In this document: in pieces, positions 44,914-54,109 of the stretch
Position numbering within the stretch: position 1 is the stretch's first letter
How the letters are laid out: each line of letters opens with the position of its first letter
NCBI GenBank assembly: GCA_000004985.1
Contig: GG738910.1
From: Naegleria gruberi
Lineage: Eukaryota
Reading direction: 5' to 3' (one strand)
DNA length: 64,000 bases
Translations under genes and position numbers: made by a program
Notes under the pieces: model-generated
Seen by the model: the letters and a program-made list of their open reading frames with translations, nothing else
Told to the model about the DNA's origin: nothing
Database searches by the model: none

Positions 44914-46078
44914 ATGAAGGTTAAGGCTCTGTAAGTTTTGCGAACAGTTAAATTTTTATAGCTTTTTCAGGATTCTCGTTGGTGGCTATGGAACAAGACT
45001 TCGTCCACTTACTTTCTCAACTGCCAAGCCTCTTATTCACTTTGCAAATAAGCCAATAGTTGTTCATCAAATTGAAGCATTGAAGAAGGCAGGATGTACA
45101 GAGATTGTTCTTGCTGTAAATTATAAGCCACAAGAAATGATTGATGCTATGAAGAAGTATGAAGAAAAGTATCAAGTTAAGATTACATATTCCGTGGAAA
45201 ATGAACCATTAGGTACAGCTGGACCTTTGGCCCTTGCCAGGGATATTCTTGTTGCTGATGAGAATGAATACTTCTTTGTTTTAAATTCTGATGTTATTTG
45301 TGAATATTCGTTTGATGAACTGTTGGATTATCATAAGTATCATGGAAAGGAAGGAACCATTATGGTAACTAAAGTTGATGATCCTAGTAAATATGGTGTA
45401 GTTGTTACACAAGATGGAAAACAAGGTGAAATAGAAAAATTTGTTGAGAAACCAAAGACTTTTGTTGGTGACAGAATCAACGCTGGTATTTATGTGTTTA
45501 GTACAAAAGTGTTAGAAAGAATTGAATTGAGACCAACCAGTATTGAAAGAGAAATCTTTCCATTTATGGCCAGGGATAATGAATTATATGCAATGGATTT
45601 AAATGGCTTCTGGATGGATATTGGTCAACCAAAGGACTATATTACTGGTATGTGTTTGTATTTGTCTAGTGACAAACACAAGACAGAAAACAATCAACAA
45701 TTTGCTAAGAATCCAGAAGATGGTTCTTACCAAATAATCAATGAATCCTCAGTTCTGGTTGGAGAAAATGTTAAAATTGGAAAAGGAGCAATGATTGGAC
45801 CTAACGTAGTGCTTGGTGATAATGTCATTATAGAAGAAGGAGCCAGAGTTACTAGGTCAACAATTTTTGAATCAGCTTGGGTTAAACAACACGCTCTTGT
45901 TAAATCATCTATTATTGGCTGGAAGAGTTCTGTTGGTAAATGGTCAAGAGTGACAAATAACACAGTTCTAGGAGAAGACACACATGTCGACAATGAGATA
46001 TTTGTCAACGAGATCAAGGTGTTGCCTCACAAGACAATAAGTAGTGATGTGCTTGAACCAGGTCAAATAATAATGTAA
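44914..46078 (+). CDS. GMPP: mannose-1-phosphate guanylyltransferase (GDP-mannose pyrophosphorylase), 2 exons
   Basis: The 17-nt exon 1 is 44914..44930 ('MKVKA'). The 40-bp intron is GTAAGT..TTTCAG. Exon 2 is 44971..46078. Joined N-terminus '[36 protein letters not shown]'. C-terminal LbH hexapeptide repeats. Confidence 0.85.
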
Positions 46079-46886
46079 ATGAATGATTAAGAAATTTCAT
46101 TTTTATGGAGATATCAAAATTAAGGAAATTAAAAAATGAATAATACGCATTGATGCGTTCCTTGAAATAAAGAAATATATGTTTCATTGTTTTTAAATTT
46201 CCTTTTTTACGTTTTTTTCTATGTTTTGGAACAAAAAAAATATGGAGCAGTAGCTGACAGACCATCTGGATACAAGCGTTGTTTATGTGAAGGTATCTCA
46301 GAAGGTTTTCAATTATGGATGGCCAGATATTTTGGTTAGACTCTCAGATGTTGATAGAGGAGTTTCAATTAGAATTCCAAGATCGAGCGAAGCAGAAAAA
46401 AGGATACTTTGAACACAGAAGACCAGCTAGTAATGCTGATCCTTATATTATTTCTTCCTTGATCACTAACAACACTATTCTGTTGTAAGAAAGCATGAAT
46501 AACAAGTTGCTCATTTATTTAAAGAATGTATATACACCATTGGTTGCTGTTGAAGGAAACATAAGAAAACTTTTATCTAAAGTAATTTGATTGGAATAGA
46601 ATTGGACAATATCTGAAGCTGGGAATTGATAAATTATTTAACGAGTTTGGAAATCTTGAGATAGTGGAGTGGAAATCTGTATGAACTTATGTGAAAGTAA
46701 CGAATTTTCCAAAATTTAAAAGATTTCACAATATTTTCTGGCAACTTTCCTAAGAGGCAATGTAGTTCGTTTGCAATAATTTTAGTAATGATGAGCCGTT
46801 TTTTTAATAATATTATTAAGAGTGCACGGTTGTTGTGGTGAGGTGAGACGAAATATTGTGGTGCTCGCCCTTAATTATTATAAACA

Positions 46887-47894
46887 ATGCAAATAAAAAT
46901 GTCGGAATTACGTGTTCAACCTCTCGTTCTCACCGATCAGGATGTTGTTTTAGTAACAGGAGGAACCGGTCTCTTTGGTAAAGCCGTTGAACATGTTGTC
47001 AAACAAGATAATTTGCCAGGAAGTTGGGTTTTCTTAGGATCTAAGGATGGTGATTTACGTGATTTGAGTGCTTGTAAAGCACTTTTTGAAAAATACAAAC
47101 CAACCTATGTTTTACATTTGGCTGCTTTTGTTGGAGGTCTTTTCAAGAATATGAATTTTAAAGTCAGTTTCTGGCTCGACAATGTGAATATGAATAATAA
47201 TATTCTCTCATGTTGTTATGAATATGGAGTTAAAAAGACCATCTCTTGTTTATCTACTTGTGTCTTTCCGGACAAGATTGAATATCCAATTACTGAAGAT
47301 AAACTCCATGTAGGTCCACCACACTTTTCCAATGATGCCTATGCCTATGCCAAGAGAATGTTGGACATGTTGAGTGTTTGGTATAACGAACAAGCTGTTC
47401 GTGAAGGAAAGGAAAGCAGATTCTCAAGTGTTATCCCAACTAATCTCTATGGACCACACGATAATTTCAATGTTGAAAATGGTCACGTTTTGCCAGGTTT
47501 AATGCACAAGTGTTACAAGGCCCAAAAGGGAGGTTCCGATTTTATTGTTTATGGTTCTGGTAAGCCATTGAGACAATTCTTATTTTCACATGATGCTGCT
47601 CGTATGTTGTTGTGGACCATGTTGAATTATCAATCACAAGAACCAATCATGTTGTGTGTGAGTGAGGAAGATGAAAAGAGTATTGGACAAGTTGCTCAAA
47701 GTATCAAGGATGCTTTCAATTTTTCTGGAAATATGATTTTCGATACATCAAAGGCTGATGGTCAATTTAAGAAGACTGCCAGCAATGCCAAGATGTTACG
47801 TTTGAATCCAACCTTTAAATACACTCCATTTGATGAAGCCATCAAGACAACTGTACAATGGTTCTTGGATAATTATGAAACTGCTAGAAAATAA
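46887..47894 (+). CDS. GER: GDP-L-fucose synthase (GDP-4-keto-6-deoxymannose 3,5-epimerase/4-reductase, GER/FX/TSTA3)
   Basis: 335 aa. 'VLVTGGTGLFGKA', 'YVLHLAAFVGGLFKN', 'CLSTCVFPDKIEYPITE', 'YAYAKRMLD', 'VIPTNLYGPHDNFNVENGHVLPGL', 'SKADGQFKKTASNAKM'. Collinear with GER/FX. Confidence 0.9.
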   Translation: MQIKMSELRVQPLVLTDQDVVLVTGGTGLFGKAVEHVVKQDNLPGSWVFLGSKDGDLRDLSACKALFEKYKPTYVLHLAAFVGGLFKNMNFKVSFWLDNVNMNNNILSCCYEYGVKKTISCLSTCVFPDKIEYPITEDKLHVGPPHFSNDAYAYAKRMLDMLSVWYNEQAVREGKESRFSSVIPTNLYGPHDNFNVENGHVLPGLMHKCYKAQKGGSDFIVYGSGKPLRQFLFSHDAARMLLWTMLNYQSQEPIMLCVSEEDEKSIGQVAQSIKDAFNFSGNMIFDTSKADGQFKKTASNAKMLRLNPTFKYTPFDEAIKTTVQWFLDNYETARK

Positions 47895-52312: not shown

Positions 52313-52630
52313 TAAATGAAATTCCCTTTATAAATCCTGGAACCTTCTTGCTGCTTCAAGAACATCTTGTAAAAATGGTTTTTGCACGTTATGAATTCTA
52401 ATAGTTGGAATCTTAAAACTTTGATCACAATGATATCATGTTCAGTTGAACTATTAGTGAAACTATCACTACCTGAATTATAAATATAATAATTGTTGAT
52501 TGTTATTGACTTTTCTTTATTCAACAAACAATTTCCGTTCTCTATGTTGTTCTTCTCTGGGTTTTATATTAAATAGGAACAATTTAATAAATTTATTCAA
52601 TCACGACAATTAAGATTTATTTTTTAAAAA

Positions 52631-54109
52631 ATGACCATCAAAATGAGGAAGGCAATCATATCAATTCTTTGCTATTTATTGTCTTCATTTCTGTTGTATT
52701 ATTTGTTTTCTGTGAGGAGAGAGACTGCGCCTGTTAAAACCACGTTACTTAAACCATTAGATTCTACTCCAATCTTCGAATTAACAAACCCTTCCCATAT
52801 GGAAAATTCTTTTATGTGGTATTTAAGGCAAATTAAGGACCAGAAAATAGGACATGAACCTCTCTTAGAACCAATTAATTTTGCTTTTGATAGCATAAAA
52901 CTTAATGATAAGAAATGGTTTCACTTTTTTTATGATGAAGATAACAACACAAAGCAATGTAAAGTTAAAGGGTGTAAACTATTTTCCATTGATGCATCAA
53001 TAATCTCTAAAAGATTAGATGCAATAATCTACAATGTTTATATGGCCAATGGTCCAGAAATATCGAAAAAATTGTTCGAAAAATCGACAGGTAATGGAAA
53101 GAATGCCTTGCTTTCTTTAAAGAAAGTGTACAAGCAATTGAATTCAACTGCTATGGATAAGGAATTTGCAAACACTATATGGAAAGAAATGGCTCCTTTG
53201 AAAATTGTTTTTAGTTATGAACAATATACTGTAGGGGTTGTCAATCAACATATTGATTATATAGATATAAGTGGATGCAGCCATAGAAATTGTTCTATCT
53301 TTTGTGGATATAATTTTAACACAATCCAACTTGATGAAAAGGTGATAGGGACTAAAAAGAGCACGCATAATTCATTGTGTTCATTTATTTCAAATTGTGA
53401 TGTAATTGATGCAGCCCGAAGAATTCAAGATGTACTAAAGTTATCCACTTTTGTTAATGGAAGACATTATGGACAATGTGGAAAGAATGTTGCTGAAGAT
53501 TCCAGAGGAAAATTATATGAATTAGAGCATAATTGTAAATTTTATACTGCTTTTGAGAATACTAGAAAGGAAGATTATGTAACTGAGAAGTTTTTTGAAG
53601 GAATTAAGGCAATAGAGAATGGAGCAAAGGTATTGATGATTTATGATGGGGCTACAAATGTTGAAAGTTTCGGATTTCCAAAAGATGTTTTCATTAATAG
53701 AAACGACTTTAGCTCGGTGGATGAATTGGGAAAATATTTAAAGTCACTGAGTGAAGATGAATTATTATTCAACCAAACTTTTCTGAGGGCTTTTTCAAAA
53801 CAGAATATACCAATCATCGAAAAAGTCTTTAATTATCATTATTTGAAAAGAACCGACACAACAGTATGTAGAATGTGTACATCTATTGCAGAGGTGAAAC
53901 TCGCTAGGTACCTTCTTTACAAATGTGGATTGTTTGAGAAGGCTACATGGGGTGAATTTCGAGAGAGAATGAAAGTATTGCTTAGTAATGAGTCAAATAG
54001 ACTTTCTATTCTTGACTCAATGTTTGAAATTGCTTATGGAAGAGTGTTCAAGAAAAATTTGTCTGAAACAAATTGGAATGACTATAGCTATAACTATAAC
54101 ACACCTTAA
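52631..54109 (+). CDS. GT10 fucosyltransferase-like paralog 4 (divergent; type II membrane protein)
   Basis: 492 aa. TM 'AIISILCYLLSSFLLYYLF'. 'LCSFISNC', 'KFYTAFENTRKEDYVTEKFFEG', 'ENGAKVLMIYDG', 'ARYLLYKCGL'. The N-terminal domain is shorter and diverged ('FMWYLRQIKD'). Confidence 0.65.
   Translation: MTIKMRKAIISILCYLLSSFLLYYLFSVRRETAPVKTTLLKPLDSTPIFELTNPSHMENSFMWYLRQIKDQKIGHEPLLEPINFAFDSIKLNDKKWFHFFYDEDNNTKQCKVKGCKLFSIDASIISKRLDAIIYNVYMANGPEISKKLFEKSTGNGKNALLSLKKVYKQLNSTAMDKEFANTIWKEMAPLKIVFSYEQYTVGVVNQHIDYIDISGCSHRNCSIFCGYNFNTIQLDEKVIGTKKSTHNSLCSFISNCDVIDAARRIQDVLKLSTFVNGRHYGQCGKNVAEDSRGKLYELEHNCKFYTAFENTRKEDYVTEKFFEGIKAIENGAKVLMIYDGATNVESFGFPKDVFINRNDFSSVDELGKYLKSLSEDELLFNQTFLRAFSKQNIPIIEKVFNYHYLKRTDTTVCRMCTSIAEVKLARYLLYKCGLFEKATWGEFRERMKVLLSNESNRLSILDSMFEIAYGRVFKKNLSETNWNDYSYNYNTP

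Follow-up and report, generated by a model that had tools for sequence, protein, structure and literature searches.

A 64,000-nucleotide stretch of a 243,952-bp scaffold of Naegleria gruberi NEG-M, referred to here as the window and numbered from its first letter, contains five contiguous, intact genes that together cover the synthesis of GDP-fucose and its use. They occupy positions 44914-54109, all on the + strand, and encode, in order, GDP-mannose pyrophosphorylase (GMPP), GDP-L-fucose synthase (GER), a fucosyltransferase of family GT10 (FucT1), GDP-mannose 4,6-dehydratase (GMD) and another GT10 fucosyltransferase (FucT2). This five-gene block is real, complete and non-random. It probably represents a young cluster of the N. 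gruberi lineage, in which native genes were duplicated and relocated and then kept as a presumably co-regulated module for supplying and using the fucose donor. An earlier note, made from the sequence alone, had named these five genes, placed them on the + strand and read them as a complete route from mannose-1-phosphate (Man-1-P) to GDP-fucose together with the enzymes that consume it. Family tests and matches to public proteins bear out the identities, coordinates and strand of all five, and the whole route with its consumers is present in the block.

Taking a pathway cluster to be at least three adjacent, non-homologous genes of one pathway found together beyond chance, the block is one, with five genes from four families. 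For the four-family set of 14 genes among ~15,700, the total that we assume for N. gruberi, ~4e-12 runs of five adjacent members are expected, and a chance origin is therefore negligible. Inside the block, no further open reading frame (ORF) of at least 80 residues has a family match. Scans of the window for tRNA and Rfam RNA were empty, so neither lies inside the block, and the window has no runs of N.

Identity of the five genes

GMPP (44914-46078, +; EFC38171 / D2VYB3) encodes 374 residues in two exons (44914-44930 and 44971-46078) separated by a 40-nt GT-AG intron (44931-44970). The product matches the Pfam families NTP_transferase (PF00483, 145 bits) and GMPPB_C (PF25087, 95.7 bits against a cut-off of 39), the latter corresponding to the C-terminal left-handed beta-helix domain of GMPPB. 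Among solved structures, it is most similar to Arabidopsis VTC1 (448 bits) and human GMPPB (421 bits), while GMPPA reaches only 172 bits. The enzyme is thus of the GMPPB/VTC1 type, nearer to the catalytic than to the regulatory subunits, and shares 55-58% identity with its plant, fungal and animal counterparts. A divergently oriented gene for the chaperone BiP shares a 276-bp intergenic region with GMPP.

GER (46887-47894, +; EFC38172 / D2VYB4) is of the GER/FX/TSTA3 type. The ORF spans 335 residues, or 331 from the annotated start (M5, at 46899). Its closest solved relative is the GDP-L-fucose synthetase 6AQY of the PDB (664 bits), which we take to be the N. fowleri protein; the next-closest solved enzymes are animal, and the human FX structures score 386 bits over residues 17-331. 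Against the bacterial equivalog NF047922 the score is 188 bits, below the cut-off of 500, as expected because the enzyme is eukaryotic-type. A second GER gene of N. gruberi, EFC38078, lies on a 261,328-bp scaffold and is identical to the block copy at 307/314 positions (98%), leaving aside a 17-residue gap. The EFC38078 model lacks these 17 residues of the Rossmann region, through either a mis-called intron or damage to the copy, and the same scaffold carries the GT10 gene EFC38086, ~15 UniProt accessions apart.

GMD (51146-52312, +; EFC38174 / D2VYB6) also encodes 374 residues, from exons at 51146-51365 and 51408-52312 that flank a 42-nt phase-1 intron (51366-51407). The protein scores 573 bits against the TIGR01472 equivalog (cut-off 415), covering profile positions 1-341 of 342. 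Among solved structures it matches the N. fowleri GMD 5UZH with 689 bits and the GDP-mannose 4,6-dehydratase chain of 1T2A with 511 bits. The spliced GMPP and GMD products and the GER product are identical to the N. gruberi proteins EFC38171, EFC38174 and EFC38172, respectively.

The GT10 assignments were tested with the PF00852 hidden Markov model, whose gathering cut-off is 23.9, and both hold: FucT1 (48442-50199, +; EFC38173 / D2VYB5) scores 105 bits and FucT2 (52631-54109, +) 85 bits. The FucT1 ORF comprises 585 residues, or 555 from the annotated start (M31, at 48532), and that of FucT2 comprises 492. The public model of FucT2 (EFC38175 / D2VYB7) has only 318 residues and looks 5'-truncated; the 492-residue ORF carries a membrane anchor at its N-terminus and can be aligned with the paralogues from about residue 48 onwards. 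A hydrophobic N-terminal anchor is found in both proteins, pointing to type II topology, and in FucT1 it forms helix 12-41 of the AlphaFold2 model. FucT1 and FucT2 are 33% identical and belong to separate GT10 sub-lineages.

Both carry the GT10 motif F/Y-x-x-x-F/M-E-N-S/T ... D-Y-x-T/S-E-K together with the conserved Arg. Their donor motifs, YFAMENSVVPDYITEK in FucT1 and YTAFENTRKEDYVTEK in FucT2, align with the equivalent motif of FUT9 and Arabidopsis FUT11, and R329, E374, N375, Y381, E384 and K385 are invariant in all six aligned GT10 paralogues. The function of these residues is that generally ascribed to the GT10 donor motif. At the C-terminus, a CxxC present in both enzymes (CRMC in FucT1) aligns with that of plant FUT11 and FT13. 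In addition, E247 (FucT1 numbering) is a conserved Glu and, by analogy, a candidate catalytic base.

Arabidopsis FUT11 and human FUT9 are the solved relatives by sequence, and structure comparison leads to the same family. The AlphaFold2 model of FucT1 (pLDDT 75.8) has the two-domain GT-B fold, and every significant PDB match is to a GT10 structure. The top 12 Foldseek entries, which represent FUT9, mango FT13, Arabidopsis FUT11 and Helicobacter pylori FucT, have E-values of 1.7e-8 to 5e-4 over ~400 aligned columns and modest target TM-scores of 0.37-0.55. The N-terminal acceptor domain PF17039 gives no match in FucT1 or FucT2, and profile alignment to solved GT10 enzymes extends over the C-terminal domain only. 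Judged by sequence, the acceptor-side domain of these fucosyltransferases is divergent.

Environmental heterolobosean-like contigs contain full-length relatives of the two transferases; Closterium, a dictyostelid and animals have more distant ones. On three short environmental contigs, no GMD, GER or GMPP flanks the GT10 homologues. In a first protein search, none of the recovered members of this GT10 subfamily came from N. fowleri, N. lovaniensis or Willaertia.

Native origin and assembly of the block

N. gruberi has three GMD genes, namely the block copy, EFC38159, which shares its scaffold but lies beyond the window, and EFC48202 on a 938,756-bp scaffold. The last has the shortest branch, is the most fowleri-like and is 90% identical to the block copy. 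Judging by the order of UniProt accessions, a second GMD (D2VY91) should be located just outside the window on its left side. A neighbour-joining tree groups the three N. gruberi GMDs with one environmental sequence; the sister of this clade is N. fowleri plus N. lovaniensis, and Willaertia and Percolomonas branch further out. The GMD genes of N. fowleri, N. lovaniensis and Willaertia magna are orthologous to that of the block (79-82% identity). An intron interrupts the gene at the same position and in phase 1 in N. gruberi (42 nt), N. lovaniensis (408 nt) and Willaertia (47 nt), splitting the codon immediately preceding a conserved FKL. Since this ancestral position and phase are kept, the block GMD is a DNA-level duplicate of the amoeba's own gene.

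The surroundings of GMD in the relatives are different. In N. lovaniensis, W. magna, an N. fowleri-like contig and a further heterolobosean contig of 4.3 kb, the next gene is an opposite-strand gene for a 377-residue protein, which in the three longer loci is followed by a cytidine deaminase gene. No GER, GMPP or GT10 gene lies within 10 kb on each side of GMD in these three loci or anywhere on the 4.3-kb contig. The earlier note had asked whether the pathway genes are dispersed in related genomes; for GMD they are, and the gene is unclustered there, unlike in the N. gruberi block. Conversely, the conserved neighbours, the 377-residue and cytidine deaminase genes, are absent from the entire 64-kb window. 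For GER, a metagenome scan found the closest eukaryotic contigs at 67-69% identity, all unclustered, and further relatives at ~50%; on the two closest contigs (69% identity), neither GMPP nor GT10 flanks GER. A protein search with concatenated GER and GMPP missed even their own Naegleria proteins, making it unreliable for synteny, and we use it solely as evidence that GMPP and GER both have their best relatives among eukaryotes.

The genes of the block differ widely in their identity to the nearest paralogue (GER 98%, GMD 90%, FucT1 64%, FucT2 33-35%), which argues for stepwise assembly rather than a single block event. N. gruberi has at least eight GT10 genes, counted as four in the window, EFC49958, EFC38086, EFC42769 and one more as a margin. 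This large GT10 expansion, with its divergent acceptor domain, is uncharacterised. The two window copies outside the block are a 556-residue, intact gene at 19777-21447 (-), 64% identical to FucT1, and its neighbour at 17830-19650 (-; EFC38212 / D2VYA1), which is 43% identical; the PF00852 scores of this pair are 108.6 and 95.4 bits. The gene at 19777-21447 was absent from a protein search that recovered weaker paralogues and may lack a public N. gruberi protein entry. Within FucT1, a 381-nt tract (49550-49930, +) is 98.7% identical to positions 20426-20046 of that gene, and wherever the residues agree, all third codon positions match (100%). Outside the tract, the two genes are ~46-87% identical in 40-codon windows, and identity is 75% over the aligned 1.4 kb. 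The tract is a recent ectopic gene conversion, confined to the donor-binding domain, with a partner that is inverted and lies 27 kb away.

A different origin, suggested in the earlier note, is acquisition of the genes as a block; the source would be a bacterium or a giant virus, where gmd, fcl, manC and fucosyltransferase genes are often neighbours. In its gene content the block recalls O-antigen and colanic-acid loci of bacteria as well as giant-virus glycosylation clusters, and the GT10 subfamily is sparsely distributed. Nevertheless, this proposal is already largely refuted and is the least probable of those considered here. GMD is nested among heterolobosean enzymes and retains the ancestral intron, GER is nearest to 6AQY and then to animal enzymes, and GMPP is of the plant, fungal and animal type. 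The GT10 enzymes have heterolobosean and other eukaryotic relatives and none in 2.9 million viral contigs (IMG/VR). The GC content of the block (0.32-0.36) matches the rest of the window. Neither foreign affinity nor deviant composition is found, and self-BLAST and a repeat search detected no insertion-junction repeats around the cluster. That the arrangement was instead produced by the 2010 Sanger assembly, through collapsed or chimeric paralogous regions, is also highly improbable. The arrangement is seen in one assembly of the strain, and near-identical paralogous segments, such as the two GER copies (98%) and the 381-nt GT10 tract, could mislead an assembler. However, these stretches lie inside genes and not at their boundaries, the gene junctions are unique, repeat-free sequence, no N run interrupts the window, and BiP and the five genes have consecutive UniProt accessions along the scaffold (D2VYB2 to D2VYB7).

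The earlier note had also likened the arrangement to a bacterial operon, and the five genes are indeed co-oriented with no gene between them. The gaps, counted from annotated starts, are 820, 637, 946 and 318 bp, wider than several others in the window (49-126 bp). Each gene is thus preceded by 0.3-0.95 kb of intergenic sequence, two of the genes have spliceosomal introns, and sigma-70-like matches (45 against 44 +/- 6 in shuffled sequence) and terminator-like matches (5 against 4.2) are at shuffle level, so that the short gaps, lack of introns and single promoter and terminator of a bacterial operon are all missing. Nothing in the window suggests operon processing, and we know of none in Naegleria. 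A true polycistronic, operon-like unit is therefore very unlikely, and the block resembles bacterial manC-gmd-fcl-fucosyltransferase loci only in which genes it contains and how they are oriented. More serious, although still improbable, is the view that the block is a neutral by-product of a region prone to duplication and conversion, where paralogues of one pathway came to be adjacent without selection or shared regulation. Paralogues are numerous (three GMD, two GER and at least eight GT10 genes), the conversion tract joins two GT10 genes, and a weak reverse-transcriptase fragment (17221-17475) adjoins the other GT10 pair. The absence of a shared upstream motif, detailed below, fits this view as well. 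Tandem duplication, however, cannot account for five co-oriented, uninterrupted genes of four non-homologous families; at least three independent relocations to a single spot would be needed, and ~4e-12 such runs are expected by chance. Moreover, every copy is intact and has kept its catalytic motifs.

Several points weigh against a young, selectively kept cluster. If the clustered GMPP is the only, housekeeping copy, part of the pathway's completeness is incidental. The GMPP-GER adjacency could predate the age that we propose, since the loci compared in N. lovaniensis and the N. fowleri-like contig are those of GMD, and the trees are neighbour-joining trees without support values. A crude k-mer search found no complex 7-10-mer in at least four of the five upstream regions. 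Finally, a review that cites Cervantes-Sandoval 2010 (PMC3390111) describes surface terminal alpha-L-fucose as less abundant on trophozoites of N. gruberi than on those of N. fowleri, and the gene expansion is not obviously matched by more trophozoite surface fucose. Low trophozoite fucose is compatible with a product that is unexposed on trophozoites or not terminal alpha-1,2/6-linked, although it proves nothing.

On balance, we favour a native cluster formed in the N. gruberi lineage. Genes would have been brought together stepwise by DNA-level duplication and relocation, such that an additional GMD, a GER copy that is either additional or the product of a very recent duplication, and two GT10 paralogues of ancient divergence settled beside GMPP, each gene retaining its own promoter region. 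We infer that selection for co-regulation or dosage holds the genes together and that they are co-expressed, possibly at one life stage such as encystment.

Proposed product and the surrounding window

In the proposed pathway, GMPP would convert Man-1-P and GTP to GDP-mannose, GMD would convert GDP-mannose to GDP-4-keto-6-deoxy-mannose, and GER would convert this intermediate to GDP-L-fucose in the cytosol. GDP-L-fucose would then be imported into the secretory pathway, where the two type II GT10 enzymes could transfer fucose to acceptors; the window contains no recognised transporter for this import. Sequence reveals neither linkage nor acceptor. The acceptors are most likely GlcNAc on N-glycans or on similar glycans, and we assume alpha-1,3 transfer to GlcNAc by default. 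Fucose glycoconjugates are reported in a review for both N. gruberi and N. fowleri (PMC3390111). Co-regulation of the block together with a lineage-specific fucosylated glycan is plausible.

A second glycosylation group lies ~25 kb upstream of the block (13740-24333). Besides the two GT10 paralogues described above, it contains a divergent pair of type II membrane proteins (21498-22883, -, and 22933-24333, +), ~66% identical in DNA, both with a C-terminal match to GT18 (MGAT5) and one with a sub-threshold MGAT4 match as well. The group also includes an F5/8 type C (discoidin-like) protein (15596-16084). A transmembrane protein spread over two ORFs (13740-14751) has no family match. A series of short ORFs that overlap one another (16028-17475, -) adjoins the GT10 pair; it includes a weak RVT_1 match (17221-17475, E=8.6e-5, under the gathering score) and is probably a decayed retroelement.

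In a more far-reaching but tentative reading, a dedicated, co-regulated "fucosylation island" was recently assembled from spare paralogues and drives a stage- and lineage-specific fucosylated glycan, for example of the cyst wall. Its proposed extent, equally tentative, would be the block plus four genes of the second group 25 kb away (two GT10, two GT18/MGAT4-like) and probably the second GMD. If true, the island would offer a rare view of how a primary-metabolism cluster for sugar nucleotides arises in a free-living protist.

Between the two groups lie unrelated housekeeping genes, which encode a WD40 protein, fumarase, a phosphoesterase, a THUMP methyltransferase, HMG-CoA reductase and BiP. 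The last (42634-44637, -; D2VYB2) is an HDEL-terminated Hsp70 and an exact match to XP_002670962.1. On the other side, an 878-residue ORF (54688-57324, -) is convergent with the cluster and has one N-terminal hydrophobic helix and type II-like topology. It has no Pfam match beyond noise even at E=5 and no PDB match, and its single-sequence AlphaFold2 model (pLDDT 31.6) is unusable; its true start is probably in a short upstream exon near 57431. Further downstream, an inositol polyphosphate kinase domain (59149-61057) extends over two adjacent + strand ORFs (59149-60570 and 60578-61057), which are probably separated by a short intron or a frameshift.

Comparison with known gene clusters

The genes of the block are individually annotated already, while the cluster itself is apparently undescribed. 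The full-text literature (subscription-only papers were outside the scope) yielded no account of a comparable cluster from a cellular eukaryote and no mention of the locus tags, in agreement with the earlier note, which had known of no described fucosylation cluster. The block overturns nothing and opens no long-standing question, and its value is moderate. It is nonetheless an unusually readable case, in that the ancestral dispersed layout survives in relatives, the clustered genes can be recognised as extra paralogues that differ in age, and ongoing gene conversion is visible. It also yields a testable hypothesis, namely that the five genes are co-expressed and that alpha-1,3-fucosylated glycans are made in a defined life stage of a cultivable amoeba.

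Among known systems, the closest in content are the bacterial colanic-acid and O-antigen loci (manC-manB-gmd-fcl plus fucosyltransferase; wca/cps in E. coli), which have the same enzyme set in co-oriented genes and likewise place donor synthesis beside its consumers. These loci are polycistronic and encode bacterial-type enzymes, whereas the N. gruberi block has eukaryotic-type proteins, introns and gaps of 0.3-0.95 kb, and its transferases are Golgi-type GT10 type II membrane proteins. Giant viruses, whose genomes are eukaryote-associated, also combine GMD and GDP-fucose synthase with glycosyltransferases, as in the chlorovirus GMD/GMER and mimivirus glycosylation clusters (reviews PMC9614988, PMC4691112). 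In contrast to these sets, the GT10 genes of the block have no relatives in the viral contig scan, and its GMD and GER are vertically inherited Naegleria genes.

The yeast GAL1-GAL10-GAL7 and DAL clusters and the galactosaminogalactan cluster of Aspergillus fumigatus (uge3/gtb3/agd3/ega3/sph3) are similar in being adjacent non-homologous genes of one pathway that were assembled by relocation, with no operon inheritance. The Aspergillus cluster in addition couples a nucleotide-sugar enzyme with a glycosyltransferase, as does the N. gruberi block. Co-expression is documented for all three. They differ from the block in pathway and lineage, and the N. gruberi cluster consists of extra paralogues with other copies elsewhere in the genome. 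Eukaryotes seldom cluster the non-homologous genes of a pathway, and whether such clusters arise through selection for co-regulation or through neutral rearrangement is debated. In this setting, the N. gruberi block is an uncommon yet not unprecedented eukaryotic pathway cluster.

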